A stretch of 64,000 nt of DNA from a virus (Duplodnaviria > Caudoviricetes): positions 41,496 to 105,495 of the IMG/VR virus record IMGVR_UViG_3300021255_003843; one strand, 5' to 3'. Position numbers and translations under genes: made by a program. Positions 4,412 through 55,918 of this stretch are shown here, piece after piece. Under the pieces are notes generated by a model. That model saw only the letters and a program-made list of their open reading frames with translations, did not search any database and was not told the DNA's origin. The number at the start of each line of letters is the position of its first letter. Position 1 is the first letter of the stretch.

Positions 4412-4430
4412 AAATAACCTCCTTCTTTTC

Positions 4431-4457
4431 CATATATATCCATTCTCGAGTGTAATC
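4431..4457 (-). promoter_or_regulatory. 27-bp repeated motif, candidate phage late promoter (copy 1)
   Basis: GATTACACTCGAGAATGGATATATATG just upstream of the Dit RBS; near-identical copies at 36107, 43806 and 59869. Confidence 0.7.
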
Positions 4458-4474
4458 ATTATTTTACGCACTTG

Positions 4475-4521
4475 TAAGCGTGCGCCCTACCCCTTTTAAA
4501 GGGGTAGGGCGCACGCGCTTA
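4475..4521 (-). terminator. Long hairpin after the TMP gene
   Basis: GCGTGCGCCCTACCCCTTT / AAAGGGGTAGGGCGCACGC inverted repeat. Confidence 0.7.
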
Positions 4522-4553
4522 TCTAGCATTTGTTTATTAAATATATATAATCC

Positions 4554-7500
4554 TTAGAAAGAATAGCTCATCGTATTAAAGCCTTGCTTCGAAAGCTCTT
4601 TAACAAACTTCTGTCCAACACGCTGCGCGACCTCGTCAAAGTCGGCGTCATCCTTGAACTGAGCTTCTGTGATGTTGATCACAAGCTCGCCAATGTTCTG
4701 GCTGTTTCCACTGAACGAGTTGCTGTCGATATTGCTGATTGTAGAACGATAACGCACAACCTTTGCCTCGTCTAAGAAGCTGCGTATCAGAGCGGTATCG
4801 TCGGCGCTAAGGAAAGCTTCGGGCTTAGCTTTAGTGCCGTCAACCCAGGCGGGACCAGTGAAATCAACTAAACCACCGGAATCAAAGCCAAATAATTTCT
4901 TAACGTTATCGGCCAGTTTGTTGGCAGTAGCAGATATTGTTTGAGCAACTTTACTCGTTGAACCAATTTTGTCTGTGCCAGAAGAAGCAGTGTCGTAATG
5001 AAGAGCTCTGGAATTGTCAACGTAAGCGCCATTGTTATCTTGAACATTGATCCTGTCAGCGTCTGTTGTGGTATTCGCATTATTGCCAGACCCAGAACCG
5101 GATCCAGATTTCTTACTCGATCCATTTGTCCCAATCCCGCTCAGACCATTATCGCTATGACTATAGACAGCATCACGCTTTTGCGCAGCAATCCAGTTAT
5201 CATACATCTCGCCCCAATCGTAAAGCATTTGTTTCTGCTCATCCTCTGAAGCATTGATGTAATCCTGACTTGCCATCATGTAATTCAGGAACAAGTCTTT
5301 GCCGCTCAAGATATCAGCGATTTCTTCCCAGTAAGTGTGCGTATAACCAATCATTTGCTCGTAGGTGTCGATCCAACCCTGGATCATCTGCTTCTGCGCA
5401 GCGTCCATTGCTAAGCCGTACTCTTCTACGTTAGCCTTCAACCAATCGAGCATACCTTCCTGGCTCATCTGCATTACCTGGTTTACCTCGTCAGCCAGAT
5501 TGTTGGCGTCTTCAAGCCAGGCTTCAAGATCTTCGCCGCCGTAGTTAACGAAATCATCGTAAGCCTGCAGCTGGCTATCGATCTGTTCCTTTTGGTAATC
5601 AGCTTCATCTTCGGCAACATCCCATGCAATCTCTTTCTCGATCTTCGCAATCTGCTCTCTCAGCTTTGCGGCATCCTTTGTGCGGGTGCTGTCCATCTCA
5701 ATCAACGCAAGCTGTTTCTTGTACTCAGAAAGCTCTTCATACTTCTCAGCTTCGTCTTCAGCGTCTTTTCTACGCTGAAGACGTTCGTCAATCAGATTCT
5801 TTTCTTCTTCAAGCGCAGCGCGTTTCTTCTCGATGTCTTTCTCAATCAAAGCCCACTCAGCGCGATAGCGCGCACGGATCGCTTCGATGATGGCGTCTTG
5901 CATGCTGACAGTACCGGCAAGCATATCACGCTCGCGCTGGATACGGTTGTTAATCTCAGTGTCAACCTCGGTTTCAAGATCGGTATGCAGCTTCAGTATC
6001 GCCTGTTCGTTCTCTTCAATCTTCTTTGTATTCTCCTGAATCGCGATGTTTGCTTCCTCGATCGCTTCTTCATAAGCGAGTACACTGTCATACAGGCTCT
6101 TCCAATCGTCGCTGTTCTTCTTCGTCCTTGCCATCTGCTTCTTCGTTGTTTCGATATGCTTCTCAAGCGTAGCAATCAGGCGCTTCTGAGCATCGTTCTC
6201 AAGCTCGATCATCCGGTTCTGGTTGCCTATCTCGCTGGCGTTTTCATACTTTGTCTCTTGATACTGGATCATCTTAATCTCGTGATTCAGCAGAGCTTGT
6301 TCGCGCTTCAGGCGTTCAAGCAGTTTCTGAGCAGCGGACTTACCTCCGCCGCCTCCGCCGCCTCCACCACCGCTACGTCCTTTACCAAGATCGGTAGTCT
6401 GGAACTGTAGTTTAATATTGCTGCCGTCGGATGTAACGACACCAGTTGCTTGCATACCCATTCGCGAAAGTGTTGCCATGATCTCTTGAATTTGAGCTTG
6501 CGCTGCACCAGTTGCTTCGTTGGCAAGCTGAGACAAGTCAACAGTTACTTGACCTTTATCAACCAGCAACTGAATTTGGGATCCGTCCAAACCAAGATTC
6601 TGCAGTTTCTCGTTGAACGTACCTTGCAGACCTTCTGTCAACATGGTGCCAGCAGTATTCAGATAATTGTCAATCGCTTGCTTATCTTCAGTTTCCCAAT
6701 CTTTAATTGCTTGCTGTACAGGGGTGCCGCCTTTTCTTAAATCTTTTTTATCTAAGCCAGTACCTTGCGCAATAGCAGAGAGCACGTCGTTACTTCTATC
6801 ACCTTTTTTGTATTTCTCTCGATAATACTGATTGTTAGCGATAGCATTGATGCCCTGCCGGAACGATTTCATATATGCATTAGAATCTTTAATGTCTCCG
6901 CTAAGTGCTCTAACGCCGCTTGCAATATCTTTTGAAGCTTTATTAAATTTATTATACTGTTCAATCTTTCTTGCAGAGAACTCGCCGTTCAAGGCGGTCA
7001 TATCATATGTAAAATCCTCTGTTGCATTGCCGATCGCATAAAGAAGATCAGCTCCACCTTCAATATCACTCAACCATTGAGCAAAATCTTCGTGACTTGC
7101 TATATAAGATTGAACAGTAGCAAGCTGTTCTGTGTTTAAATTTAGCGAACTGCTTGTACCAAATCCTTCACCAAATTGCTGCCTGGCAATTTCCATATTG
7201 TTATTGAATAATTGATCTCGATAAAGAGGAGCATAGCCAGTGCCTTGGATCAGGGCATTCCGCATCTGGTCATATGTCCATCCGTGCTCGCTATTATAAA
7301 AGATTTCATCAAAGCCGCTGCCAAGCATACGAGCTCCTTCGTCCTTCTTCAGATAATCTAAAAGCTCGGCGTCGCTATTGATGGCCGCTATCAGAGATTC
7401 CTGATCTGAACTTTGCATAGCCAATCTTGCCAAACGGTTCTTATATGTCTCCGCTTCTTTTTCAGGTTCAACATTAGCTGCTGCACCTTGCGTTAAGATT

Positions 7501-10500
7501 TCATAAGCAGTTCTGTTATCAGTTATTTCGCTAATGCCAGTAATTTGTCCATCTTTCTCTGTCAGCTGTAACCCAGACATATCAAGCAGTTGTTCGACAA
7601 GCTCTCTAATTTTTTGATTGCCATCCTTAGCCAGATCTGAAAGGCTACTGAGCTCAGGGAAAGCTCCAACAATTGCTGCTTCCAAACTATCTCGTATCTT
7701 TTGTTGATCGCCTTTTAAATCTTTTGCAAGATCTTTCAGTTTTTCAGGTGTCTTTTTATATTCTTTTATTTCTTCATCTGTGAGTTGAGCTTTTGTCTGT
7801 AGGTACTCCCAATCAGTCTCAGTAAGATTAGCTTGATTATCATACATTGTTTGAGCGATTTGAGCTGCTTGACTTGTGCGTTGAAGCTCAGAGCCTTCTG
7901 CGCTTATTAATCTTCTCTCTTCTCTGGTGGGTCCTTTTGTACGATCAATGTCTGCAAGCCTCTGCGCAAGTTCAGCGCTACCAGCTTTCAGCTCTCCATT
8001 GCGTTCTCGCTCATAAACAGTTTGATAAGCAGACCCGGCTTTAAGCGCATCTATCTGATATTTCTCAAGCTGCTGCCCAGACATCACAGCAGAGTAAGCT
8101 TCGTTAAAGCCCTGCACGTTATTTGTCAGATAATCAAGCATCGTCGGGTTATTCTTTCTCAACTCTTCGAGCTTTGCCTTGTCGCCATTGAGAGCAGCTG
8201 TAATGTATTCAGATACACCGGACGTTGTCATCCTCGTAGCGTTCGGAGCCGTAATACCGTACGCGCCGTTCAACAGCATGGCGCGAATAGCGTCAACGTC
8301 GCCTCGCTCTATAGCCGCAAGGAAATCAGTGTTACTAAGTAGATCTGTCGCAGCGGTTGTTTTATATCCATTTGTACGCTGTACTAAATCGACATAACTT
8401 CTGAAATCGCCTAAATTGCCATTACTCAGTTCGAAAGAATTCAGCATTGCTTGATAATCAGTGCTTTGATCTCCCTGTCCAAGCGCTGCTCTTGTATCCA
8501 GCGCTCGTGCCAATTGCTGAGCCCATGTCAACTGCGCGTCAGCTTTGCCGCCATACTGCATCTGCCATTGCCCATTCTCGCCGCGCACAATTTCACCAAG
8601 CTGAGAAGCACGAAGTCGTTGATTCACTTCAGCTACTTGAGCATCTGTCATGCCAGTAATCATATCGCTTGTAGACTTCTGCGTCCTACCAGGCTTAGAC
8701 ATCCCAAGCATTACCTTGATGCGCTCTAAGAAGCCTTCTGGTTGCTTAGTTTCGTATGCGGCATCACCAAGCTGATCCACCAATATTTGGTCGACAGCTG
8801 TGCTGACAGTAGTGTTGCGAAGCTTCTCAACCTCTTCCATTGCATATCCGTAATCATTTGCTAAGCTGCGTTCACCAGACTGATATTGCGCAATAACGTT
8901 GTCGCCAATATTAAAGGCATTCTTGATCGTATTCCAATCCTCTGGCCGCTGTATTCCTTGACCAGAAGTTAAGCGTTTATAAGCCTGCTGCACCTCATCG
9001 AGGTTAGTGATCTGCTGTCCAAGCTGATTCATCTGGCTAATGCTATCAATGATATTGCCGTTAGCAATCGTCGTCAGTTGATTACTGAGACCAGATAACA
9101 CTTTACCTTCTTCTTCGAGTGCGCCGATTACCTCATTGCGTATCGCATCGGCCAAAGTCTTAGCAGCTTTGGCCGCAGCTTCGCTGTCAGAGCCATACGT
9201 CGCAAGATAATCAAATAAACCAGGGAAGCTCTTTAACTGGCTTTGAATACCATCTTCTAATCCTGCAAACATATCTTTCGCACCGTCGCCAGCTTCCATC
9301 AGCTTACTGATTTCTTCCAGCGTTTTGGCAGTTGTCATTTGCGGAGTATAACCAACAAACGGATTATCTGTAAACGATTCCTGCGCTTTCTTTTTTAGAT
9401 CGTCTAATTCCTTTTGATCAACTGTTTCTCCATTGTTTTGTTTTTCAATTAACTGCAAATATCTGAGAAGCTCAGACGATTGACCAAGCTGACCAAGATA
9501 TTTTTCACCAGCCTGCTGCAAGCTCATATTATTATCAAGCACATCTTTTATCATCGCTCTATTGGAAGCGTTTGAGAAAACACCGCTTGTGTTATACAAA
9601 TTTTTCCAGTTATCATACCATAAGCCTTGCAATAAACTTTCTCCATTTTTTCCGACAAGATTACCGTTTTCATCAAACGACAGCCCGAGCCCGCTCATCA
9701 CGTCAGAACCTACATCCGAATTGGCCGCATTAAGCAAGCTAATAAAAGCAGGTAAATACTGATTTTGTCTTATAAGCTCTTCACCGACGGACAGTTTTAA
9801 ATCATCCCAATTGTCTGCAGTAACTTCTTTATCAAACCCAGAAAAACTCTTCATCGATTCTATAAAGCTTTGTGCTTCTGCAAAGTCATATGATTTCTCT
9901 TGTATGTCAGACATCTGTTGAATTGTACTAACCCAGTTGTTAATACCTTCGGTGGCAGTTTTTATCTCATCATCTGTTCCGTATAAGCCAGTAATCCAAC
10001 CAGCTTGATCAGAAGTGATCCGGCTTAATGCCTGCAAGCGATTTAAGTTACGAGTATTGTACGCCTTTCGATACTCAGCTTCCGCTAACTGGTATTCGTC
10101 AGCTTCTCTATTTCCTATCAATCCAGACATTGTATATACATTTGACAAGATTCCAGAACCGCTGTTGTTCTGCCATATTGCCTGTTCAGTCGGAGTTAAA
10201 TTATTCTCTATATATTTACCAAACGCTTGCGGTGTCGCAAATTGATTAGAGCTTATTAATCCATAGAGCTTATTAGCCAATTCATACTGGCTGTTTTCAG
10301 ATTGCATTGCTTTATACGGATTGTACAAGCTTCTGTTCTCATAAGTCAATCCGCTTAAATCTGATAAAGTCTTGCGATCAAACAGGCCATATGCGCCGCT
10401 ATAATCACTATATCTCGCGTTTAATCCAAGCTTGTTCATAGCAGCGTCAAGAATAGGAGTTCCGTATTGCGCACCAAGATAATCATAACTGTAAGCAGCA

Positions 10501-13500
10501 TCGTTCTGAGCTTGTAACAATCTCGCATTTAAGTCCGTTGAGGCCCCTGTCATCGTAATATTTCTATGCGTTACATCAGCGTTTATAAAATCATTTTTGT
10601 TAATACCGATTAAGCTGAACAAGTTTTCGTCAATAGCATCCAGTTCTGTACCATTGTTAAGATATTGACTGATTGTATTGTATGCTACAACCCTGTCATA
10701 CACATCGTTAATATTCTGTACCATTTTATCTCTAAGCGCTTCGCGGCTTGTTGTTTGAGCTGAACCATGTCCTTCAGATAAAGCTTGAATCACCATATTC
10801 GTAAGCCCATCGGACACTTGGCCACTTCTTTCTTGTAATCTTAACCATGCTGTCTTTAAGATATCCAAAGCGTTATTTCTATCGGCGGTAATCTTGCTGC
10901 TATTCAATGTTGTAATAGCGTTTGCAACATCCGATCCATACACACTGGTTATCGCAGCCAGCTCGTCTTCTGTAAGCTGAACATTAAAATTACCGCTGTT
11001 TAATTGGGCGGCGGCTTTAAGTACAAGCTTTTGAGCCTGCTCTTCTGTTGTAGCCATCGACGCTTGGTTGATATCAAAAGCAGCGTTCGGTCTGTTGTAA
11101 TTAACAGAGTTAAACCAATTTTCTTGGAACCCTTTGCCGTTCGTAAGACCCAGCTGCTCAGCTTGCGCCTGAGTCATTAAACCGGCGTGAATCGCAGAGC
11201 CATATGTGTTTACCAAAGCTTGTCTATAATCACTGCTGTTCAAATACGCCACATACTCTCGAGCAGCTGCGGCTTCATTGCCAAAGAAATCTTTGTCGCT
11301 CTTGCCAGCGTAAGTAGAAGATCCGGCTTTAATAAGCTCCTGATATTGAGACGGAATATTTGCCCAAGCAATAGTGCCAGAAGCTAACCGATTTGCAAAC
11401 TGTCCGGCGATCGCTTGATTACGCATGGTTTCAAGTTCTGTGTTGAAAGTTGTTTGCGCCTCATGTTTCTGAATTCCATTTCTTGAAAACTGGTCAGCTA
11501 ACTCAACGAGATCCTTGATCAGCGTACCGGCTTTCAAAACTTCTTCTATGCCTTCAGACTTAAACTTGATCTTAATCTCAGTTTCTAACTCTTTCTTGCG
11601 TGCCGCATCAGTAGTGTTTATCCACTCATACAGCTCTGGATATGCACTCTTGATCTCGTTTAAATACTCTCCATATTTTTTCTTAGCTTCATCGGCATTA
11701 AGATCAAAGTTGACAATATTTGAAGCGACAGATCTCAGCTGTCTGGATGTATAAAAATTGTTGCCGTTAGCGGCCAGAGGATTTTCTTCGACATATCCTT
11801 GACCGGTATATGTTGTTGAAAATTGTTTATCTTGTCCGATAGTTGTTCTATAACCAGCAGATTTTGCGGCCTGCGTAAACTGCTGAAACTCTTGTCGAGT
11901 AGACTCGTCGGTTATACTATTCGCGTAAAGTTCCATAATTCTATCAGTAAAATCAAGGCCTTTATTTTCTTTTCTGAGCTTATTCCACTCTTCTTCATCC
12001 ATTGATTTAACGAAACCGCCAAGCAGATCTTGCATATAAACATTGAACCCGTGCGCACTTTCTTCTCTTGCTTTATTTAATCTGCTATTTTCAAGTGTCA
12101 TGTACAAACCTCTGTTTGCATCAAAGTTTGTCCTATTAACACCCCACTGTTTAGCAATTAAATCGTATTGATCCGCACTCGCAGTACCAGCATTTATAGC
12201 ATTGTATGCAGCAAGTTCTTGACCATAACTCATATTACCAGACAAAATACTGGCCGTATAATCCGTTAAAGAGCTTTGTAAAACTTTACCTTGTAAATAA
12301 TCTCTGAATTGATCCAACGTATATTTGCCGGTGCCAACTTTAAGATCTTTAATCATTTTAGCAAACTCTGCGTCGTTTGTCATAACGCCCGTCAGATTAG
12401 GTATTTGTTTTTCAACATTGGATATCATATCAGCCATATCTTGATAAGAGCTGGCTTGCATGGCATATGACAACACATTTTTATATACATCTGTATATTC
12501 TTTATCATTTAAACTATAATCATTAACAAATTGATCTAAATTTCGATAAGCATTTAATCCAGCTGAAGTTTTTATTCTATTTATGTCAAAATCATCGTAA
12601 TTTAATTCAATAATATCAGACGTTTTTTGAATTATTGATTGTTTATAATTGCGATATGCTTCTTCAGCTTTATCTAAATCGTCAAAACCAAACAATTGCT
12701 TTCCATTTTCATCGGTGTAGAAATATTTGTATTTATTATTTGCTTTCTTAGCTGCATCCTGGAATTGTTGTGGTGCTTTATATGTATTTAAATATCTTTG
12801 TAAAGATTCATGTAATGCATCTGGCAAATCTTCAGGCAATACTTGAGCAGTATCTTTCAATAATTGATCCTTTAAATATTTCCGCGCTTCTTCATCTCCG
12901 CCAGTTAAGCTATCTGTATCTCCAAGAATTTGACCTATAAAAGTATCAACTTCTTCTTCTCGCTGTTGTTGATAAGCGTCGGTATATAATTTCTGAATTC
13001 CTTGTCCTTTTGACCCAATTAAATAATTCCTAAACGAGTTTAAGAACTCTTTTTGATGTTCAGGATTAAGATGCGTGATCGACGTAAATACATTTTCTGA
13101 AAACCTGGCTCTCGTTTCATTTCCAAGTTTCTTTAAAAAACTGACGCCATCATCAGTATTTAAGTATATCTTAAATTTATCGTTTAATTTAGGATCATTA
13201 ACATCTATGCCGAGCATTGAAAACAATGCCTTTTGATAGAATTCTTCATATGCTTTTTCAGAAGAAAGATCAATATCGTAAATACTATCAGGCATTATAT
13301 CCGCATAATCAAATGTTATTGCAGAAGTTGCATCAGCAATGTCAGAAGGCAACGTACCAGATGCCCAGTTGACCAAATATTTTTCATTTAATGAAGTACC
13401 TACATTTTTATGTTCAACAGAATGTTGCGATGCATTATAAGCATCTCTTAATTTATCTGGTTTATACGCCGCTTCATAAGCAGCATATTTCATATCAATA

Positions 13501-16500
13501 GTATCTTCATCTATGTCTCTTTGTAATTTATCTATATGATCCTGACCTTGAGTAACAAATATTTTCCAATTTTTGCCAGCTTCTTCTGCGCTTTCAAATC
13601 CTTTCTTAACACCGTCAAGCGTACCAGCTAAATCGTTAAGAGAACCTATAAAAGCCTGTTGATCAGAAGCGGACATATTGCCCTTTGCTTTTTCCCAAGC
13701 CTCGCCATATTTCTGAACTTCATCAATTTGTTTCTGTAAAGGTTGTAAACCTTCTTTTCTGTTTTTAGAATAAGAATCAGCTAGCTTAATTTGCTGTTGA
13801 GCCTTTAATGTCGGGTCGTTTTGATCTACAAAATTTTTACGAGCGGAACCGATAGCTCCGGCAACACCAAGAACACCAGCGATCGCGACAACGGAAGCCA
13901 GTGTGCTAACCAGACCCGCCGCGCCTTTGAAAGTGTTAGAGGCAGCATTAACGATCAGCAGTTTAGTGGCTAGCGCAGCAAGCGCGCCGCCAATCACAAC
14001 AGCAGCGGTAGACACAGGCCCAGCAACAGACGTGAGATCTTTCAGTCCACCGACAAAGCCAGTAACCATATCGACAGAGCTCACAAAGAACTGGTTGCTC
14101 GACATGCTTGAAACCAAGCCATCGTAAGTAGCCTTCAATTCTTCCATCGCAGCCGTAATACTCTTCACAGCGATAGCATACTTGCTATCTGTCGTGCCTT
14201 CACTATTCTCGGCTAAGCCAAGTAATCTGTCTAACTCAGCACCGCCGTCTTCTCCCATGCCTTCCATCAAGGTCTGGAACACGTTCGTCTGCCTGCCGCC
14301 AGCCATTGTATACGTAATGTTATTGCGCTGAATATCATTCAGACTTCCCCAAACCTTAGACAGATCGCGAAGCACATCGAAGCTGTTTCTAAAGCTCTTG
14401 CCACCGCTTTCACGTAACTGAATGCCAGCGCCGGACAGAGCTTTTTCAACATCGTTGATTGACACGGAAGCGCCCGTCTCGTCGTTGACATAACCCTGAT
14501 TCGTAACACGATTCATGCGTGAGAAGATCGTCTGCATAGCAGTACCGATTACCTGGCCGCTCATCTGAGTTTTACTGATACCGATCGTCAGCATTGACGT
14601 TAATTCTTCGTAGCTGACACCAGCAACCTTCGCAGCGGCAGCGGACTTCTGCATACCCTTGAAGATCTCATTAGCTGTCGTAGCCGCGCTGTCGCCCAAA
14701 GCGGTCAGCGCGTCCATCGCTTCTTCAGCGGAGTTTACGAGGCCGTTCTGTATAGCAGTGGTGATTGCCTTGCCGGCGTCTGTCACCTTTGCGCCAGTAA
14801 CGGTGGCGAATTTGATGATCGCGCCAGTACGGTCCTCTACCTGCTGGTCATTTAAACCCTGGCGATAAAGGTCCGACTCAACGGATGCAACGTTAGCAAC
14901 GCTCGTCTTCAGCTCGATAGCGCGATCGACCGTCGCCTTTTTGACAGCCTGCATCTGCTCATCCGTCTTCATCGTAATCGCCTGGATGCCACGCATCTGG
15001 CTATCAAACTGCACAACAAAGTTCTTAGCTTCGGTAAACGCCTGACGGATCATCTTCCTGCCGAAGCTCTGCAGCAGTTTATCCGCAGCGGTTGCCGCCG
15101 TCTCTAAACCGGCAGCAAGCATATTGCCAATTGTCTTGAAGTTGCCGGCAGTGTCGCCGAACTCCTTCATTGCTTCCTTCGTGCTCTCGAGTGCCTCACG
15201 ATAATGGTCAAGACTTGCCGTAGCAGAATCATATTGAGCCTGCGCAAGGTTCCTGTCTTCGTCGGTAGCGGCATTATCAATAGCGTTCTTGGCAGCAAGC
15301 TGCTGTTCTTCCATCCGCTTGACCATCATATCGTTGTAGTTATATTGGCTACGATACTGATCATACATGTTCTGACGCTGGAGGTAAGTGCGACTCAGAG
15401 GATCAATTGCAGTTCTCGATTGCCAGTTGCGGTTCATCTGCTCGACCTGCATCTCGGCACGCTTAGCTTGCATGATCTCTTGTTCGCCGCGAAGCTCTGC
15501 CTGCTTCTGACGCTGGCGAATACGCTCGTTGTAAGCAGCTTCTTCGCGTTTCACGTAATCATCGTTAAAGCGTTCAAGCGGCTTAAGGCGCTCATCTTTT
15601 TGTTCTTGTGTCAGATCAGACTTGCGGATTCTGTCAGCAATCTTGCGAGCATTATCTACATTTTTCTGCGCTTTATCTCTGACAGCTTCAACACCTTCAA
15701 GATACCTCGAGACATCAATATTTTGCTCGTCGTATTTACGCTTATAATCTTCGAAGGTAGTGTTTACTATCTTCGCTTCATCTTCTGTAATAAACCCAGT
15801 CTTCTGTTTCTTCCGGTTGATCCTGGCTTGCTCTTCTCTAAAATCAAGGAAAGATTTTTCTTTATCAATATCGTATTTATCAACATCGGCCATGTAGGTG
15901 CTTAACACCTGAGCAACGCGAGCTCTATCCTGCAGTTTAAGATGCTGCTGTTGAAACATCGTATTCTCGTCGATTTGCTGAGTAAGCACAGAATACGGTT
16001 CCATCTTCTTAGCAACTTCTTCGTCGCTCATGCCTTGATCTTTATATACTTTCTCCAACCTTTCACTCAGCTGAGAAACAACTTCTTTCGCTTCGTTTGC
16101 TCCTTGCTTCAGCTGCTGGAACGGGTCTTTGATAACAGTACCTTTTATTTTATCAAGCAGATTTGTTATATCTGCTTCTTTCATCTTGCCAGTTTCTTCT
16201 CTCGCACCAGCAAGATAAGTGTCAGTTTCTGCTAAACGCTCTTCGTAAAGTTTTCGCTCAGCTGGGCTGAACGGATACTTCTCACGATCCTGCAAATGTT
16301 TCTGAAGTTCATTGCGATAATCTTCGACAGCCTGCAGCTGGTTGTTATACTCTTCGAACTGAACATCGAGCGCGGAAACTTTATTGGCACGCTTACGATT
16401 TGTTTTATCTAGATTCTCATATAAGCGTTTTGCTTTAAGTTCAGTGGTGTCAGCAAAGTCTTGATTCATCTGCTGCATCAAGTCTTTGCGTCCACCAACC

Positions 16501-19500
16501 AATTCTTTAAACTCCTGCTTCATGGCAGGCGGCAGCTGATCAAACTCTTCGCCATTCTTAATAAAATCTTCAAGCTGTCTATAAACAAAGCCAACGTTCG
16601 CAGCCCTGCTTCCGTAATAAGTTTCTGCTTGAGACTTACCTTCAAGCTCATTCTCTTTCTTTAGAAGACCAGACAAGAACTGCTGCTTCACGCTGTCAAC
16701 ACTGGACCGCAAAGTGTTAGCATGTTCTTGAGCTTGAATGTAAGTATAAGCCTTACCAAGTTGAGCATTCTCATCTAAGATACGCTGACGTTGCGCTGTT
16801 ATATCGCGATAAGCCTGCATATCAATCCCGCTGCCAGCAGCGAGTTGATCAACTTCGTCGTATACGCGCGCTACTTGAGCAGCTTCGGCCTCGGCTTTCG
16901 CGAGATCACCGTCTACCGCGTAAATACGTTTAGAAGCTTCAATAGCCTCTTCTTTTGTCATATCCGGAGAATAGCGAGCCTGATCTTCCTGCGGCAACGT
17001 ACTCTTGATCTGATTCATCTGCTCTTCGTGCTGTTTCGTCTCGATCTCAATACGCTGTAATTCAGCTTGATTCTCCTGTAGCTTTTTCTCAACTGCTTCA
17101 CGCTGCAGCACGGTATCCTTGCCAGTGAAAGTAAAATCTAAACCGCCCTTCTGCCCTAAGAATAATTCTGGCAGAAGCTTCGCAGGATCGTCTGTACGGA
17201 ACACAGAGCTAATATTTGGCTGGTTGATACCTCTTTCGATGAAACCCTGGGCTGCAGTAATACCATATTCGTTCATCTTCTTTTGAACATAAGAATCGAA
17301 CGAAACCTCAGAGCCATCTTCCATTTTAATCATGCCACCTTGGGCTTTTTGATATGCTTCTTCCTCGATTTCACGCTTAGATGCTATAATCATAGCCTGC
17401 ATATCATCAAGCTCTTCTGCAGACATCGGAGCCATCGGGTTAGCAATATCATACGCCTTCATTGTGCGAAGGTTCTTCATCAACGCTTGCGTTGTTTCGC
17501 CTGCTCCGCCATAACCCATATGTTCAAGAGCTTGAAGCAGAGCGTACGTGCGTTCCATATTGACGCCTTTAGACGCAACCTGAGATACAGCGCGCATTGT
17601 TCCAACGTCTGTTGTGTTAAAAATAGAACGGAAGTTGATCTTATCAAAACCAAGATCGCGAAGTTCCTTCATGTTGATAGGAATCTCATGTCCGTTTACT
17701 GTTGCGGTGTAGATGTCCTCAGGAGAAGGAACATCCATGTTGTCGCGGCCTGTTACGTTAAACAGGCGACTAAAACGAGACGGAAGCTTAGACCATTGAG
17801 CACCAGCGTATAAAGCCTTCTTCATCTGAGGAGTTGCTTCAGTAGATGTAGCGTGCTTTAACCCGGCGGTAGCTTGGTCGTAAGTAGGTGTGCTTTGAAT
17901 TGCCGCTGCTAAAAGATCTTTATTTTCAGGAGCGTATATATCAAACATTGCTGCACGACGCGCAGAAGCGTCGGCAGCACCCATTTCGTTTGTAACATCT
18001 TGACTTGTTTGAAAGAATAAACGACGATGAAGCGGATTGTCTACATTTTTAGCCGCTTCGGCAGGCATATCTACCTTCTTAATAATGGGCTCCGTACTTC
18101 CTTCAAAATCCTGAATGGCTTTTTCTTGAATGGCAACTACTTCAGCAAACGCTTCAGCTAAATCGCCATAAATCGTTTTTGCTTTATCCCCATCTAAGTC
18201 TGCGCTACCAAGCGTCGCCAAATCCGCCTCAGAAGCGAATAAGCCACTCGTAGTTTGCCCGAAAACTTTATATATATCTCTCGCTAAATTAGCATAGTTT
18301 TTGCCAACAACAAAGTTGCCAAACAGAGAAGGGCTTCTTTGAACAGCAACTTTTTTAGCATCAGGTCTGGCAAAGTCAACAAGTTGACCCTTGTTTAATG
18401 CGAACACACCTTCGAGATCTTCGTCACTAATGGTTAAAGCTGTGCCAGTTTTTTCTTGATATTGTTGACGGATTCTTTTCAGCAAGTCAGACCTACTAAG
18501 GCCATTGATCGTTTCAAGACCTAGTATGGACGCCAGAGGAGACTTATTGATAGTCTGGTTAATAACAGAAGGGTTTGTACCAAAATCTATCCATTCACCA
18601 GAAGACATGCGCTCTGTCAATGATTCAATCTCGTTCTGCACCCAGCTTTGCACGGCACTGCTGTTCACGTTTAGCTTGCCGCTTCTGATCTGCTTACCGA
18701 GATAGTTGTCAGGATCAGCAAACAAATATTCTCTGATGCCAGCCTCAGAACTTAACAGGTTGATGCGTCTATCAAATTCGTCGATTTGTTGTTGACGCAT
18801 CTTCGGACTGAGGTTCATAAAGGCCATTGCTTGAGTGCCGATACCTTTTGCTCTTGTTTCAGCATCATCATATGTGCTCATACTCGACATGCCATAATGC
18901 TGAAGCATCGCCGTAAAACCTTTGCTGATCTCTTCAGGAGTGTGGAAGTTCGAGTACGCCTGCATGTTTTTAATCGTAGAAGCATCAACGAAGCCATGGT
19001 AATCGGTTAAGTCAATGTTGCCGCCAACGCCAGGCAAGATAAACCGACCGTTGGCGTCCGTTAAGCCGGCAGCTTTTGCCCATTCGCCAACAGTCTTATA
19101 ACCGGAGATTTGGTGGAACGTACCCTTGCCGGCAACACCCATACGGCCCTGGAAATCTTTTTCAGGTAGAATACCATCCATGAACCAGCCGATACCATCG
19201 GCAAGCTTCTGCTTCACATTTTCATCATTGATTTGAGACAGATCAACAACAGCAAAGTTGCGATTCTTGAAATTGCCATGTGTGTCCCAGCTGTTTGACC
19301 AACCTTTACCGGTTGCATCGAAGTGTTTTCTCAAGCTTTCAATGTCTTTGAATTCATAAGCAGAATCAACGAAATCATTCCAGAAATTAGCGCCCTTACC
19401 GTCGGCAGTTACAAAGCCATGCTTCTGAGCCCATTCCTGCTCACGCTTCATGACAGCTTCATAAGCTTGCTGCTCAATCATGCGGACACCAGCATGAGTA

Positions 19501-20915
19501 CCAGTGCCGTGCATATTCTGAGCAATATACCTCTTGCCGCTCGGACCAATAGGCACAGCCTTGCCACTCAGCAACTCTTCAATAAAAGCCTGCTGTTTCG
19601 GATCATTTCGATCATAACCATCAGCGCTGACAAAGATGACCTTGTCAGTAAAATCATTATGATGGCCTTCAAGGCCGAGCATTCTCGTGTTCTGCGATTC
19701 ACTGAGCATGACGCGAGAACTTTTTCCGGTATTATTAAACAGATCGCCGACAGTGTATTTAGCAATCTCATATTGCTCAAGCATATGCTTTGTAGATCTA
19801 CCGAGCTTCTCAAAACCTCTGCCAAGAGATCCCGCGTCAGACCAATCTTTGTCAGAACCAATGCCGTCAATGTCACTCATGATGCTAAGCAGACGGCCGG
19901 CAGAAGAAGAGGTCATGCGGCTTACAAGCTGGCGTGCCTCTTTGCTCGTCATATCTTCTAAGCCTTTGAAAATATCAACACGCTGGCTATCTCTGCCAGA
20001 AGCTCGCTTCACGAAAGACGTGAACAGGTTACGCCTGAAATCATCAAGCATCTGCGGAGTGATTTCTCTAATCAGAGACAGTTCACCATTGTCCTCAAGT
20101 TTCGTCATGCCTTTGACGCCGTAAGCAGCTCTCGCGGCTTCATCATTGTCTCTGATTAAATCTCTGAGCTGCGTTCGATTGTAGGCAGACAGGATGCGAG
20201 AACCACTCGGCATTGCCATAGAAGTATAGCCTTTATTCTTATAACTCTCCCTGAAACTTGCAGGAAGCAGGTCTACAGGCTGAGCAGTGGTGTTATTATT
20301 CCTGAGAATATGCCCATACCTTGCGCGCTGATATTCTGCGGTGTTAAAAGCAGGAAGAACGTTCGGGATCAGAGCTTCAACATATTTCTGATAGACATCG
20401 CTGCGAGTAATGCCGCCATGTCCCTTAGACATAAAGAACTCTTCAAAGGGTTTACTCTTCACGAACTCTCCGGCGGCCGTCTTAGCTGTCAAGCCAGCTA
20501 AGCGTGACGCCTGAGCTTTCAGCATAGAGGACAACTCGCCGGTTTCAGCGCTCAACTGCTGTCTGATCGTTTGCGAAAATCCATCAACAATGGATTTCGC
20601 AAACGACGCTCCGAAAGCACCGTCCTGCCCAAACAGAGAGCTCATAGTCCCAAGCTCTTTCAAACCACTCTGCACATCTTGTACAAAATCCTGGTCATCG
20701 GTTCTATTATTTAAGCGCGCCTTCGAGATTTTTTCTTGCAGCATATCTACGATCGAACTTGCGCGCTCAAGGCCTTCGTTTAATGCGCCCGTCATACTCG
20801 GCGCGTCTTCAAACGAGGTGCGAAGTTCGTTAAACTCTTGCTTAAAGTTCCGTAGTTGGCCTACAGCTTTATCAAGGTCTAACACTTCTACACTCAAAGA
20901 TAGTTTGTCAGACAA
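4554..20915 (-). CDS. Giant tape measure protein (5453 aa) with N-terminal two-barrel RNA polymerase domain (candidate virion RNAP)
   Basis: TP901-type TMP segment from about aa 1960 (FDSQMRGIQAIT...SGQVIGTAMQTIFSRM...AGGRQTNVF), coiled-coil C-terminus and position between chaperones and Dit. N-terminal motifs LADGIG (D573), FQGRMGVAGKG, QRSP (R860), SADLDGD (D906). Confidence 0.85.
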   Translation of the reverse strand: MSDKLSLSVEVLDLDKAVGQLRNFKQEFNELRTSFEDAPSMTGALNEGLERASSIVDMLQEKISKARLNNRTDDQDFVQDVQSGLKELGTMSSLFGQDGAFGASFAKSIVDGFSQTIRQQLSAETGELSSMLKAQASRLAGLTAKTAAGEFVKSKPFEEFFMSKGHGGITRSDVYQKYVEALIPNVLPAFNTAEYQRARYGHILRNNNTTAQPVDLLPASFRESYKNKGYTSMAMPSGSRILSAYNRTQLRDLIRDNDEAARAAYGVKGMTKLEDNGELSLIREITPQMLDDFRRNLFTSFVKRASGRDSQRVDIFKGLEDMTSKEARQLVSRMTSSSAGRLLSIMSDIDGIGSDKDWSDAGSLGRGFEKLGRSTKHMLEQYEIAKYTVGDLFNNTGKSSRVMLSESQNTRMLGLEGHHNDFTDKVIFVSADGYDRNDPKQQAFIEELLSGKAVPIGPSGKRYIAQNMHGTGTHAGVRMIEQQAYEAVMKREQEWAQKHGFVTADGKGANFWNDFVDSAYEFKDIESLRKHFDATGKGWSNSWDTHGNFKNRNFAVVDLSQINDENVKQKLADGIGWFMDGILPEKDFQGRMGVAGKGTFHQISGYKTVGEWAKAAGLTDANGRFILPGVGGNIDLTDYHGFVDASTIKNMQAYSNFHTPEEISKGFTAMLQHYGMSSMSTYDDAETRAKGIGTQAMAFMNLSPKMRQQQIDEFDRRINLLSSEAGIREYLFADPDNYLGKQIRSGKLNVNSSAVQSWVQNEIESLTERMSSGEWIDFGTNPSVINQTINKSPLASILGLETINGLSRSDLLKRIRQQYQEKTGTALTISDEDLEGVFALNKGQLVDFARPDAKKVAVQRSPSLFGNFVVGKNYANLARDIYKVFGQTTSGLFASEADLATLGSADLDGDKAKTIYGDLAEAFAEVVAIQEKAIQDFEGSTEPIIKKVDMPAEAAKNVDNPLHRRLFFQTSQDVTNEMGAADASARRAAMFDIYAPENKDLLAAAIQSTPTYDQATAGLKHATSTEATPQMKKALYAGAQWSKLPSRFSRLFNVTGRDNMDVPSPEDIYTATVNGHEIPINMKELRDLGFDKINFRSIFNTTDVGTMRAVSQVASKGVNMERTYALLQALEHMGYGGAGETTQALMKNLRTMKAYDIANPMAPMSAEELDDMQAMIIASKREIEEEAYQKAQGGMIKMEDGSEVSFDSYVQKKMNEYGITAAQGFIERGINQPNISSVFRTDDPAKLLPELFLGQKGGLDFTFTGKDTVLQREAVEKKLQENQAELQRIEIETKQHEEQMNQIKSTLPQEDQARYSPDMTKEEAIEASKRIYAVDGDLAKAEAEAAQVARVYDEVDQLAAGSGIDMQAYRDITAQRQRILDENAQLGKAYTYIQAQEHANTLRSSVDSVKQQFLSGLLKKENELEGKSQAETYYGSRAANVGFVYRQLEDFIKNGEEFDQLPPAMKQEFKELVGGRKDLMQQMNQDFADTTELKAKRLYENLDKTNRKRANKVSALDVQFEEYNNQLQAVEDYRNELQKHLQDREKYPFSPAERKLYEERLAETDTYLAGAREETGKMKEADITNLLDKIKGTVIKDPFQQLKQGANEAKEVVSQLSERLEKVYKDQGMSDEEVAKKMEPYSVLTQQIDENTMFQQQHLKLQDRARVAQVLSTYMADVDKYDIDKEKSFLDFREEQARINRKKQKTGFITEDEAKIVNTTFEDYKRKYDEQNIDVSRYLEGVEAVRDKAQKNVDNARKIADRIRKSDLTQEQKDERLKPLERFNDDYVKREEAAYNERIRQRQKQAELRGEQEIMQAKRAEMQVEQMNRNWQSRTAIDPLSRTYLQRQNMYDQYRSQYNYNDMMVKRMEEQQLAAKNAIDNAATDEDRNLAQAQYDSATASLDHYREALESTKEAMKEFGDTAGNFKTIGNMLAAGLETAATAADKLLQSFGRKMIRQAFTEAKNFVVQFDSQMRGIQAITMKTDEQMQAVKKATVDRAIELKTSVANVASVESDLYRQGLNDQQVEDRTGAIIKFATVTGAKVTDAGKAITTAIQNGLVNSAEEAMDALTALGDSAATTANEIFKGMQKSAAAAKVAGVSYEELTSMLTIGISKTQMSGQVIGTAMQTIFSRMNRVTNQGYVNDETGASVSINDVEKALSGAGIQLRESGGKSFRNSFDVLRDLSKVWGSLNDIQRNNITYTMAGGRQTNVFQTLMEGMGEDGGAELDRLLGLAENSEGTTDSKYAIAVKSITAAMEELKATYDGLVSSMSSNQFFVSSVDMVTGFVGGLKDLTSVAGPVSTAAVVIGGALAALATKLLIVNAASNTFKGAAGLVSTLASVVAIAGVLGVAGAIGSARKNFVDQNDPTLKAQQQIKLADSYSKNRKEGLQPLQKQIDEVQKYGEAWEKAKGNMSASDQQAFIGSLNDLAGTLDGVKKGFESAEEAGKNWKIFVTQGQDHIDKLQRDIDEDTIDMKYAAYEAAYKPDKLRDAYNASQHSVEHKNVGTSLNEKYLVNWASGTLPSDIADATSAITFDYADIMPDSIYDIDLSSEKAYEEFYQKALFSMLGIDVNDPKLNDKFKIYLNTDDGVSFLKKLGNETRARFSENVFTSITHLNPEHQKEFLNSFRNYLIGSKGQGIQKLYTDAYQQQREEEVDTFIGQILGDTDSLTGGDEEARKYLKDQLLKDTAQVLPEDLPDALHESLQRYLNTYKAPQQFQDAAKKANNKYKYFYTDENGKQLFGFDDLDKAEEAYRNYKQSIIQKTSDIIELNYDDFDINRIKTSAGLNAYRNLDQFVNDYSLNDKEYTDVYKNVLSYAMQASSYQDMADMISNVEKQIPNLTGVMTNDAEFAKMIKDLKVGTGKYTLDQFRDYLQGKVLQSSLTDYTASILSGNMSYGQELAAYNAINAGTASADQYDLIAKQWGVNRTNFDANRGLYMTLENSRLNKAREESAHGFNVYMQDLLGGFVKSMDEEEWNKLRKENKGLDFTDRIMELYANSITDESTRQEFQQFTQAAKSAGYRTTIGQDKQFSTTYTGQGYVEENPLAANGNNFYTSRQLRSVASNIVNFDLNADEAKKKYGEYLNEIKSAYPELYEWINTTDAARKKELETEIKIKFKSEGIEEVLKAGTLIKDLVELADQFSRNGIQKHEAQTTFNTELETMRNQAIAGQFANRLASGTIAWANIPSQYQELIKAGSSTYAGKSDKDFFGNEAAAAREYVAYLNSSDYRQALVNTYGSAIHAGLMTQAQAEQLGLTNGKGFQENWFNSVNYNRPNAAFDINQASMATTEEQAQKLVLKAAAQLNSGNFNVQLTEDELAAITSVYGSDVANAITTLNSSKITADRNNALDILKTAWLRLQERSGQVSDGLTNMVIQALSEGHGSAQTTSREALRDKMVQNINDVYDRVVAYNTISQYLNNGTELDAIDENLFSLIGINKNDFINADVTHRNITMTGASTDLNARLLQAQNDAAYSYDYLGAQYGTPILDAAMNKLGLNARYSDYSGAYGLFDRKTLSDLSGLTYENRSLYNPYKAMQSENSQYELANKLYGLISSNQFATPQAFGKYIENNLTPTEQAIWQNNSGSGILSNVYTMSGLIGNREADEYQLAEAEYRKAYNTRNLNRLQALSRITSDQAGWITGLYGTDDEIKTATEGINNWVSTIQQMSDIQEKSYDFAEAQSFIESMKSFSGFDKEVTADNWDDLKLSVGEELIRQNQYLPAFISLLNAANSDVGSDVMSGLGLSFDENGNLVGKNGESLLQGLWYDNWKNLYNTSGVFSNASNRAMIKDVLDNNMSLQQAGEKYLGQLGQSSELLRYLQLIEKQNNGETVDQKELDDLKKKAQESFTDNPFVGYTPQMTTAKTLEEISKLMEAGDGAKDMFAGLEDGIQSQLKSFPGLFDYLATYGSDSEAAAKAAKTLADAIRNEVIGALEEEGKVLSGLSNQLTTIANGNIIDSISQMNQLGQQITNLDEVQQAYKRLTSGQGIQRPEDWNTIKNAFNIGDNVIAQYQSGERSLANDYGYAMEEVEKLRNTTVSTAVDQILVDQLGDAAYETKQPEGFLERIKVMLGMSKPGRTQKSTSDMITGMTDAQVAEVNQRLRASQLGEIVRGENGQWQMQYGGKADAQLTWAQQLARALDTRAALGQGDQSTDYQAMLNSFELSNGNLGDFRSYVDLVQRTNGYKTTAATDLLSNTDFLAAIERGDVDAIRAMLLNGAYGITAPNATRMTTSGVSEYITAALNGDKAKLEELRKNNPTMLDYLTNNVQGFNEAYSAVMSGQQLEKYQIDALKAGSAYQTVYERERNGELKAGSAELAQRLADIDRTKGPTREERRLISAEGSELQRTSQAAQIAQTMYDNQANLTETDWEYLQTKAQLTDEEIKEYKKTPEKLKDLAKDLKGDQQKIRDSLEAAIVGAFPELSSLSDLAKDGNQKIRELVEQLLDMSGLQLTEKDGQITGISEITDNRTAYEILTQGAAANVEPEKEAETYKNRLARLAMQSSDQESLIAAINSDAELLDYLKKDEGARMLGSGFDEIFYNSEHGWTYDQMRNALIQGTGYAPLYRDQLFNNNMEIARQQFGEGFGTSSSLNLNTEQLATVQSYIASHEDFAQWLSDIEGGADLLYAIGNATEDFTYDMTALNGEFSARKIEQYNKFNKASKDIASGVRALSGDIKDSNAYMKSFRQGINAIANNQYYREKYKKGDRSNDVLSAIAQGTGLDKKDLRKGGTPVQQAIKDWETEDKQAIDNYLNTAGTMLTEGLQGTFNEKLQNLGLDGSQIQLLVDKGQVTVDLSQLANEATGAAQAQIQEIMATLSRMGMQATGVVTSDGSNIKLQFQTTDLGKGRSGGGGGGGGGGKSAAQKLLERLKREQALLNHEIKMIQYQETKYENASEIGNQNRMIELENDAQKRLIATLEKHIETTKKQMARTKKNSDDWKSLYDSVLAYEEAIEEANIAIQENTKKIEENEQAILKLHTDLETEVDTEINNRIQRERDMLAGTVSMQDAIIEAIRARYRAEWALIEKDIEKKRAALEEEKNLIDERLQRRKDAEDEAEKYEELSEYKKQLALIEMDSTRTKDAAKLREQIAKIEKEIAWDVAEDEADYQKEQIDSQLQAYDDFVNYGGEDLEAWLEDANNLADEVNQVMQMSQEGMLDWLKANVEEYGLAMDAAQKQMIQGWIDTYEQMIGYTHTYWEEIADILSGKDLFLNYMMASQDYINASEDEQKQMLYDWGEMYDNWIAAQKRDAVYSHSDNGLSGIGTNGSSKKSGSGSGSGNNANTTTDADRINVQDNNGAYVDNSRALHYDTASSGTDKIGSTSKVAQTISATANKLADNVKKLFGFDSGGLVDFTGPAWVDGTKAKPEAFLSADDTALIRSFLDEAKVVRYRSTISNIDSNSFSGNSQNIGELVINITEAQFKDDADFDEVAQRVGQKFVKELSKQGFNTMSYSF

Positions 20916-21097
20916 TTCAAACTCCTCCTTTGTATTTTATTGACGTATACTTACCGATATGCTACAGTCCGCAGGAGTATATGTCTTATGGATTTATAGT
21001 TTTTTAAAATTTGGTAAAAAAATAAGGGACAGGTATGCCGTACAATTCGCAGAGCTGATATTAAAAGATTTATTTTACGGAAGCGATTGAGTTTATC

Positions 21098-23351: not shown

Positions 23352-24128
23352 TTAGGCAGCGACATACGCCAGGCTGTAAGCCTTGCCATCGTCGCGCTTA
23401 GCGTCCATCGTCGCCCAGGTGACGGCGTTAGTAGCAGCACTCTTGTAGCTGGTATCGAAACCGGGCATCTGGGTTACACGGCAACGGAACACCTTCATGA
23501 TAACATAACCCTTGATAGAGGCATCGGTGCAATCCTCACCAGAATTGTACACAGGCCACTTGAACACGGCTTCACCGATAGCAGAGGTTGCGTTATCGAT
23601 CATAGCCACGTTAGCACCGGTCACGGTGTACTCGTAAGAAACTTCAACTTCGCCAGTAACGTCATCAGGCAGAGTAACCTCAGCACCGGACACAGCAAAA
23701 GTATCGGGATCGCCTTCCTTAGAGGCAGCACCGGCGGAAGTACCTTCGACAAGGCCAGCGATAGAAACGGTCTTTTCGATAGGAGTATGAGCCAGAGTGA
23801 TCTTGTGGGAAGCAGCGTCAGGAATCAGATGCTCTGTGGTGTAAGTAGTATAGGTCTCGTCGGCCTTGAAGTTCGCACCGTTCGCCAGAGCAAACAGCTC
23901 AGCGTTGAACTGACCAGAGGTCATAGAGATTTCCATGGTAGATTGACCAGGGAGATACGCCACGGGAAACAGAGACCAACCAGCGTTCACTTCGGTGTAC
24001 TGGACGTTAGGGGAAGCGTTGGCTTGGGTGATTTCGTCGAAATAGAAAATACGGCCATCGCAGCGCTTAAACCAAACGCGCGGAACGTCGGCAATATAAC
24101 CTTTATAAGCGGCAACATATGTGCTCAT
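23352..24128 (-). CDS. Major tail tube protein
   Basis: About 258 aa, beta-rich, optimised codons, located before the chaperones and followed by a terminator. Confidence 0.75.
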   Translation of the reverse strand: MSTYVAAYKGYIADVPRVWFKRCDGRIFYFDEITQANASPNVQYTEVNAGWSLFPVAYLPGQSTMEISMTSGQFNAELFALANGANFKADETYTTYTTEHLIPDAASHKITLAHTPIEKTVSIAGLVEGTSAGAASKEGDPDTFAVSGAEVTLPDDVTGEVEVSYEYTVTGANVAMIDNATSAIGEAVFKWPVYNSGEDCTDASIKGYVIMKVFRCRVTQMPGFDTSYKSAATNAVTWATMDAKRDDGKAYSLAYVAA

Positions 24129-24212
24129 ATGAAGCACCTCTTTCTTGAATGTTTTTATATTCTCACCTTAGATACCTCCTACGTACTAAGATGGAAATAT
24201 CAAACCAGCGGG

Positions 24213-55632: not shown

Positions 55633-55848
55633 AGTAAACGCCGGGGGCGTCATGCACATGTAAGTATACAGGAATAAGCATTGCGGCTTATAAGGAACTT
55701 ACGCGCTTGATGTCATCAGGCGAACGTCATTACTTCAGAGACTCCTCCTCCTTTGCTAGTACGCCAGGAGGCAGCTAAAGCTGCCTCCTGGCTCCCTAGC
55801 AAAGTCGTCGGTAACTTGTTAGAAAAAGATGACGTCCCCGGTTTTACT
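55633..55848 (+). ncRNA. Retron msr-msd ncRNA located 3' of the RT
   Basis: a1/a2 arms 55633-55653 and 55829-55848 pair over 20 bp (2 GU, 1 bulge); unpaired G55654 opposite G55828; short msr stems at 55675-55690 and 55704-55722; msd hairpin 55751-55804. Confidence 0.82.
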
Positions 55849-55918
55849 ATTTTCCTACGTTCCGGCCAATGTTTTTCTGTCGGAGCGCATTGTTTTACTT
55901 TCAGAAAGGGGCGGTTTC

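Follow-up and report, generated by a model that had tools for sequence, protein, structure and literature searches.

The stretch of DNA considered here, hereafter the window, consists of 64,000 nucleotides (nt) and spans bases 41496–105495 of a 105,495-bp IMG/VR virus record that is estimated to be 95% complete. On its minus strand, at 4554–20915, lies an open reading frame (ORF) that is uninterrupted for 5453 codons and encodes a product of 5,453 amino acids (aa), beginning at a TTG start codon (20915–20913) located 8 nt after an AAGGAGG sequence at 20930–20924. Judged by its conserved domain, its hydrophobic segments and the order of the genes around it, this ORF is a genuine tape measure gene. 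An initial annotation, made from the letters alone, had proposed that the N-terminal quarter of the tape measure protein (TMP) houses a two-barrel RNA polymerase (RNAP) resembling YonO and eukaryotic RNA-dependent RNA polymerases, a proposal that our analyses of fold, profile homology and conservation bear out. The gene and its parts are as follows.

4554..20915, minus strand: giant tape measure gene, 5453 aa, zero cysteine (Cys); 30 metagenomic proteins of 3699–6777 aa have the same architecture
20085..20915, minus strand: aa 1–277, helical N-terminal extension; family conservation starts at residue 1, and the segment lies outside the alignment to free YonO-like RNAPs
17136..20084, minus strand: aa ~278–1260, predicted single-chain two-barrel RNA polymerase domain (YonO/QDE-1/RDR-like), from hhalign, AlphaFold2, Foldseek and VIA
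19122..19199, minus strand: aa 573–598, DG...QxR.....KG, predicted basic-residue hairpin of the β-like barrel (double-psi β-barrel [DPBB] B), from conservation, the YonO-like alignment and model strands E319–323/E327–334
18177..18338, minus strand: aa 860–913, RSP...D906-x-D908-x-D910..K913, predicted metal-binding loop of the β′-like barrel (DPBB-A), from conservation, BLASTP and the model
14916..17135, minus strand: aa 1261–2000, linker, probably coiled coil; E+K+R+Q 35–38%, with poor family conservation and occupancy
14298..14909, minus strand: aa 2003–2206, PhageMin_Tail (PF10145) tape-measure domain; Pfam E 1.6e-24, and PHROGs
13839..14030, minus strand: aa 2296–2359, hydrophobic membrane-spanning-like segments; Kyte-Doolittle 19-residue means 1.9–2.2

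The predicted polymerase domain

The ordered motifs from which the polymerase was first recognized are where they had been placed: DGIG at residues 573–576, FQGRMGVAGKG at 588–598, RSP at 860–862 and DLDGD at 906–910 (nt 18186–18200). The spacing from the arginine to the aspartate is also as described, being 46 aa in the TMP, compared to 43 in a free RNAP of 947 aa and 44 in a second free RNAP of 836 aa (where the motif reads RCP), both encoded in the window. The TMP-like segment, said to begin near aa 1960, carries the Pfam tape-measure domain from aa 2003 onward, and the membrane-like segments are followed by ~3000 further tape residues. The six reading frames of the window contain just three occurrences of D.DGD, one in each of three large ORFs (the TMP and the ORFs of 836 and 947 aa).

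By our rough estimate, one or two occurrences of a single D.DGD pentapeptide would be expected by chance in the window. We rejected the explanation that the motifs arose by chance, since the ordered set is conserved in 31 sequences and both profile and fold place the residues in the right structural elements. Mis-assembly or a chimeric ORF was also rejected, because the same architecture is present in 30 independent assemblies.

An AlphaFold2 model of aa 270–1260, built from a 27-sequence alignment, has a mean predicted local distance difference test score (pLDDT) of 84.7 and a predicted template modeling score of 0.82. When this model was compared to the PDB with Foldseek, QDE-1 (E 3e-11) and RDR2 were the top matches, followed by P74-26 gp62, crAss-like phi14:2 gp66, AR9 and bacterial β′. 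Alignment with VIA-align gave Z 17.8 for maize RDR2 (512 residues aligned, root-mean-square deviation [rmsd] 3.9), Z ~15 for QDE-1 (530–549 aligned), Z 14.7 for gp62 and Z 11.6 for gp96 (364 aligned). In a comparison independent of Foldseek that covered 48,161 PDB chains, the top five matches were all single-chain two-barrel RNAPs, namely RDR2 (Z 15.7, 521 aligned), QDE-1 (14.9), P74-26 gp62 (14.7) and gp96 (11.8 and 11.5). The next matches in this search were the largest subunits of multisubunit RNAPs, both cellular and viral, at Z ~8. Isolated or designed DPBB domains scored Z 6–7 on model residues 505–670, the barrel that bears DxDxD, and these domains and the cellular largest subunits align within residues 504–770 of the model. 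The best BFVD matches (E 1e-12) are to phage proteins that carry the annotation RNA-dependent RNA polymerase.

The residues expected of an active site occupy consistent positions in this model. The loop containing D906, D908 and D910 precedes a barrel strand (E641–646) and aligns with the DVDGD of the YonO homologue, while R591 and K597 sit on a β hairpin and are aligned with the R..(W/I)KG of YonO-like enzymes. Two basic residues contributed by the β-like barrel, together with DxDxD, are signature features of two-barrel polymerases (PMC7824862). The two double-psi barrels and the DxDGD loop that the initial annotation had predicted are therefore found in the modeled structure, with RDR2 at Z 15.7–17.8, QDE-1 at Z ~15 and DPBB domains at Z 6–7; the alignments to RDR2, QDE-1 and gp62 cover 430–550 residues. 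On the strength of this model, aa ~278–1260 form a complete single-chain two-barrel RNAP of the YonO/QDE-1/RDR clade. A separate AlphaFold2 model of aa 1–420 is mostly helical (pLDDT 77.5), and its fold has no match in the PDB at E <= 0.001.

Although QDE-1 of Neurospora and RDR2 of Arabidopsis and maize are the best structural matches (Z 15–18, 510–550 residues aligned, rmsd 3.9–5 Å), they are only 11–13% identical to the TMP domain. They are also eukaryotic, RNA-templated enzymes of RNA silencing, and neither is fused to a virion protein or delivered by a virion. Another instructive comparison is gp66 of crAss-like phage phi14:2 (PDB 6VR4), which resembles the TMP in being a virion-packaged single-chain two-barrel RNAP within a very large protein, with 521 residues matched. 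However, this match is weak (Foldseek E 8.5e-3, Z 6.7), phi14:2 is a podovirus and its RNAP is carried by a protein other than a tape measure.

Kinship with YonO and the family of polymerase-bearing tape measures

The window also encodes the two free YonO-like RNAPs mentioned above.

55829..58672, plus strand: free YonO homologue, 947 aa, DVDGD at 583; 35% identity over 83% of the length to SPbeta yonO (E 3e-121), Pfam RdRP (PF05183) E 4.8e-6, phrog_8308 E 1.5e-174; 23 Cys
37983..40493, plus strand: second free YonO-like RNAP, 836 aa, DFDGD at 489; phrog_8308 E 4.4e-58, 24% identity to the 947-aa paralogue (E 1e-18); 19 Cys

In SPbeta, the late genes are transcribed by YonO, a processive DNA-dependent RNAP (Forrest et al. 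2017, PMC5467207). The 947-aa homologue has matches in 39 phage records, all of them Bacillota phages or uncultured samples. Directly upstream of its gene, at 54436–55626 on the plus strand, is a reverse transcriptase gene (RVT_1 E 7.9e-18; phrog_2825).

By BLASTP, the TMP domain and the 947-aa free RNAP share one 86-residue patch only, in which RSP and DxDGD are aligned (E 0.002). Comparison of a profile of the TMP family with a profile of YonO-like enzymes using hhalign gave a probability of 92.6, E 4.6e-7 and a score of 73.5. The alignment is collinear over 745 columns, pairing TMP residues 278–1260 with YonO-like residues 45–876 at ~17% identity, and the DG, R..KG, RSP and DxDGD motifs are all in register, with the YonO-like side reading HTDGxG...R..(W/I)KG. 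As controls, a reversed template scored 28.6 (E 0.066) and five column shuffles scored 15–20, none of them with an E value better than 0.07 after rounding. Sequence searches of the PDB, using phmmer with aa 1–1500 or a hidden Markov model of the family alignment (A3), returned chance-level matches only. From the profile alignment, we conclude that the TMP domain is homologous to YonO-like polymerases.

The fused domain thus belongs to the same polymerase clade as SPbeta YonO, with a profile alignment that is collinear over both barrels and DG, R..KG, RSP and DxDGD in common. The differences lie in setting and construction. YonO is a free-standing, cytoplasmic transcriber of late genes, whereas the window domain is fused to the TMP; and compared to YonO-like enzymes, the fused domain has no Cys instead of 19–27, a longer connector and an extra 277-aa helical N terminus.

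How widespread is this architecture? A phmmer search with aa 101–1300 against 1.84 billion representative proteins yielded 81 matches, 30 of which are proteins of 3699–6777 aa that align at their own residues ~100–1300. The remaining matches are short and fragment-like, except for one ORF of 1339 aa. Ten family members that we looked up derive from Logan and ENA assemblies. There was no free-standing full-length form of the TMP polymerase among the 1.84 billion representatives, and a tblastn search with aa 1–1300 found no match in 50,697 phage records, SPbeta included. According to these searches, all known members of the family come from metagenomes, and none belongs to an isolated phage of the GenBank phage collection that we searched.

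We counted conservation over 31 sequences, consisting of the window TMP and its 30 relatives, which are 25–49% identical to the window protein. Q589, R591, K597, G598, D906, D908 and D910 are present in all 31 family members, R860 and K913 in 30 each and D573 in 28; P862 is nearly invariant, and G574 is invariant across these 31 diverged giant TMPs. At loop position four, 15 of the 31 sequences have A or S and the others G, and the conserved signature is thus DxDxD. Conservation extends from residue 1 to ~1250 and then collapses. The connector between K597 and R860 measures 260–331 aa in the family, compared to ~221 aa in free YonO-like enzymes.

Two features of individual family members deserve mention. 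In one contig (L003:451–12325; Logan SRR12177861_85), the TMP is split into abutting or overlapping ORFs of 1339, 1049, 109, 236, 357 and 850+ aa, the first of which (1339 aa) stops just past the polymerase domain; this arrangement could reflect frameshifts, sequencing errors or a real split. In another relative (L010; IMG/VR UViG_3300029305_007380), the 3837 codons of the TMP frame in the locus, read down from 11513, include 17 in-frame TAG codons but neither TAA nor TGA, and the YonO orthologue of the same TAG-rich relative (G001:C1:65596–68391) contains 6 in-frame TAG codons. The presence of in-frame TAG codons in both genes suggests that TAG may be decoded as an amino acid in this phage.

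Larger contigs related to the window were located using a hand-made degenerate DNA pattern. One relative, at 47% identity, lies on a contig of 110 kb that was binned with the metagenome-assembled genome (MAG) of an uncultured rumen Ruminococcus, and a second, at 36% identity, is a 92-kb IMG/VR record; a third match to the pattern (L012) was due to chance. Other relatives are on Logan contigs of 82–103 kb. A protein-seeded search of genome and viral contigs recovered no relatives of the TMP, and a word-indexed protein search with the region gave two matches only. Since the two relatives also encode orthologues of the free RNAPs, the multi-polymerase arrangement is conserved. In the MAG of the uncultured Ruminococcus sp. 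RUG14314 (contig CADBUP010000171), the orthologue of the 947-aa RNAP (G002:C171:28882–33717) is broken into four collinear segments, separated by as much as 1.4 kb, which could reflect introns, homing-endonuclease insertions or assembly errors.

Proposed activity, delivery and origin of the fused polymerase

A precedent for such a fusion exists. In Thermus phage P23-45, pre-early genes, among them the one that encodes the free RNAP of this phage, are transcribed by a TMP-fused virion RNAP; its active fragment comprises aa 327–1124 of the 5002-aa gp96 (Chaban et al. 2024, PMC10770324). The first 326 residues of gp96 are dispensable for activity, and the enzyme is flat and clamp-less with a shortened connector, a shape that the authors tie to passage through the tail; the gp96 group (PDB 8H2M/8H2N) is also present in Thermus phages P74-26, G20c and TSP4 (PMC10770324).

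The parallel with P23-45 that the initial annotation drew holds only as an analogy, in that the RNAP is at the N-terminal end of a TMP (hhalign to gp96 E 0.37; fold nearer to QDE-1 and RDR2). The likeness includes the size of the TMP (5002 versus 5453 aa), the location of the RNAP near the N terminus (aa 327–1124 versus ~278–1260), the DxDGD loop, the absence of Cys and the presence in the genome of a free RNAP of the same broad clade. However, sequence similarity was undetected when the family profile was aligned with gp96 aa 1–1300 using hhalign, and the structural match to gp96 (Z 11.5–11.8, ~365 residues aligned) is weaker than those to RDR2, QDE-1 and gp62 (14.7–17.8). The window TMP has a long connector between the barrels, in contrast to the shortened one of gp96. 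We found no metallopeptidase domain, and the window phage, which is SPbeta-like, from animal gut and not thermophilic, has two free RNAPs rather than one. Because of the hhalign result and the ranking of gp96 below RDR2, QDE-1 and gp62, we class the TMP domain as likely to work as gp96 does without being a member of its family.

In both P23-45 and the window phage, the fused RNAP most resembles the free RNAP of its own phage, which suggests two separate duplication-and-fusion events. We therefore lean toward an origin of the window fusion that is independent of the fusion in P23-45. A fuller version of this proposal, which we regard as evenly balanced between being right and wrong, is that a second, independent tape-measure–polymerase fusion exists in widespread ~100-kb SPbeta-like siphophages of ruminant-gut Bacillota. 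In these phages, a YonO-type RNAP would have been duplicated and one copy fused to the TMP, purged of Cys and left with a full-size connector, so that three YonO-type RNAPs would support a transcription cascade free of host RNAP.

The absence of Cys is among the more striking properties of the TMP. The 5453-aa protein contains none, compared to 57 expected from the composition of the phage structural genes and 91 from that of all other ORFs, and the probability of finding zero is about 1e-25 to 1e-40. Cys is also missing from the first 1300 aa in 27 of the 30 relatives; the observation covers the window ORF, relatives P0002–P0048 and L002:8288–23296. By comparison, the median for free YonO-like RNAPs is 27 Cys, and the Tal and Dit proteins of the window phage have 12 and 6. 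One possibility is that Cys is selected against in a protein that is kept extended or metastable inside the tail lumen, meets the environment outside the cell and has to be threaded along a narrow channel. Since the polymerase domain shares the Cys-free regime of the rest of the TMP, it fits an enzyme carried in the virion rather than one confined to the cytoplasm, and its composition shows signs of a selective regime different from that of the cytoplasmic paralogues.

If the polymerase travels with the tape measure, how would it act? The C terminus of a siphophage TMP sits at the tail tip. A polymerase at the N terminus would be head-proximal, beside the leading end of the DNA, and would be the last part of the protein to leave. 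The fusion would be synthesized late, built into the tail lumen as the TMP and expelled on infection, after which the TMP-borne polymerase would transcribe, without host RNAP, the first phage genes to enter and the two free YonO-type RNAPs would take over later gene classes. We think that the TMP polymerase domain is very probably catalytically active. That it is delivered into the cell as the virion RNAP that starts transcription is reasonably likely. Overall, we consider it probable that the fused YonO-type polymerase is an injected virion RNAP that initiates phage transcription.

Several observations weigh against this interpretation. The K597–R860 connector is longer than that of the free enzymes and unlike the shortened connector of gp96, and with this long connector and the bulkier domain, it is hard to explain how a folded polymerase of ~110 kDa would fit in, or move through, the tail tube. 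A search for repeated exact 10-mers in the intergenic DNA of the 105-kb genome gave no promoter-like motif, although this is a crude test that does not exclude promoters. Moreover, as the TMP gene is in the late structural block, the polymerase would also be present in the producing cell.

It is also possible, although unlikely, that the polymerase is injected to do another job, such as making replication primers, copying RNA as QDE-1 and RDR2 do, or pulling in the genome as a motor powered by transcription. The closest solved folds are indeed those of RNA-dependent or dual-template enzymes (QDE-1 and RDR2, Z 15–18), and two free YonO-type RNAPs are already available for phage transcription. 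However, YonO, the characterized phage member of the clade, is a processive DNA-dependent RNAP (PMC5467207), the sole characterized TMP fusion transcribes pre-early genes (PMC10770324) and the window phage encodes its own primase-helicase.

Another explanation would limit the action of the polymerase to the producing cell, or have it removed by cleavage ahead of assembly, in which case the fusion would ensure co-expression rather than delivery. The location of the gene in the late structural block, the poorly conserved linker (aa 1261–2000) between the domains and the one short contig in which the gene appears as several ORFs could all be accommodated in this way. However, we consider this explanation improbable, as the fusion has been retained in ~30 relatives down to 25% identity and no free-standing full-length form is present among the 1.84 billion representatives. 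Furthermore, the polymerase part is as free of Cys as the rest of the TMP, unlike the free paralogues, which is hard to square with a role limited to the cytoplasm. Finally, the domain could be an inactive relic that now plugs the tail, helps it to assemble or binds the DNA end, and A or S does stand in place of the glycine of DxDGD in 15 of the 31 family members. We consider this very improbable, since neither the three aspartates nor the basic residues of the second barrel vary among 31 sequences whose overall identity is 25–49%, and the A/S replacement preserves DxDxD, the signature cited for all two-barrel polymerases (PMC7824862).

When the TMP-fused virion RNAP was reported in 2024, the association was presented as unsuspected (PMC10770324), and the literature that we searched documents it for only one group of Thermus phages. 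Our full-text searches found a two-barrel RNAP linked to a tape measure only in the P23-45 paper and its preprint; a survey of jumbo phages mentions both YonO and TMPs, but separately. The window phage and ~30 diverged relatives show that mesophilic gut phages have this architecture too, with a polymerase of another lineage. If the fused polymerase that we favor as an injected enzyme is indeed active and injected, delivery of a polymerase via long siphovirus tails would be a general way to start infection without host RNAP, and if the fusion arose independently, injection of a polymerase through a long non-contractile tail would be a recurrent strategy rather than an oddity of Thermus phages. 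An active, injected enzyme would also provide a natural pair of forms, one cytoplasmic and the other borne by the tail, differing in Cys content (19–27 versus 0) and connector length, a pair that bears on how a tail tube can store an enzyme of ~110 kDa and let it through. Likewise, such enzymes would constitute a new, compact set of variants of the minimal YonO-type RNAP, of interest for RNAP evolution and as orthogonal transcription tools.

Neighboring genes, host and tail

The genes flanking the TMP belong to an SPbeta-like tail module.

23352..24137, minus strand: YomU-like tail tube gene, upstream of the TMP; 48–53% identity to genes of relatives that carry PF27173 YomU_Tube
3320..4471, minus strand: distal tail protein (Dit), directly downstream of the TMP; Pfam Sipho_tail, phrog_33 Dit, 47% identity to the gene at the same position in relatives
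1..3297, minus strand: Tal/YomG-like tail tip protein, running off the window; YOMG_N and Prophage_tail domains, 49% identity to the gene that follows Dit in relatives

The gene order in the window is YomU-like tube, two small ORFs, TMP, Dit and Tal, and six relatives have the same order. Upstream of the TMP are homologues of the SPbeta-type capsid protein YonB, YomX, YomW and the YomU tail tube. In the TMP itself, aa 2003–2206 also match the PHROG tape-measure families phrog_4211, phrog_28 and phrog_1533, and tblastn matches to this domain are annotated TMPs of Bacillota phages only. The best match from an isolated phage is the 2439-aa TMP of Psychrobacillus phage Perkons, which has only ~495 aa before the tape domain and no polymerase fusion. 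In relatives, ORFs resembling GIY-YIG (and NUMOD) homing endonucleases are found around the tail-tube gene (L004:2983–3573 and 4291–4968; 6024–6698 in another relative); there are none around this gene in the window.

The sequencing runs that hold sequence of this phage are animal gut metagenomes, and a quarter of the sampled words are present in one independent bovine-gut study. The host is likely to belong to the Bacillota, because homologues of YonO were found only in Bacillota phages, the tail module is SPbeta-like, one relative is binned with a Ruminococcus MAG and the TMP gene has an AAGGAGG ribosome-binding site. This evidence is circumstantial.

The initial estimate of a tail of ~0.5 μm is arithmetic on 3500 tape residues, and addition of the linker (aa 1261–2000) brings it to ~0.63 μm. 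According to a preprint, the tail of P23-45 is about 800 nm long for a TMP of 5002 aa. With a tape that scales as in other siphophages, a tail of 0.5–0.9 μm would be expected. Scaling as in P23-45 would give a tail longer than 0.63 μm, an uncertain estimate that depends on which residues are counted as tape.

Searches of aa 1–2000 against Pfam and PHROG matched no family, the linker at 1261–2000 included. Farther along the protein, a Pfam match to PF21867 (vRNAP_dom_2) at aa ~3575–3632 (E 0.051) fell short of the cut-off and was taken as noise. Near the conserved C-terminal part, the TMP contains a run of ten glycines (aa 4849–4858; window 6342–6371, minus strand), and a similar G-rich stretch is present in the family consensus.

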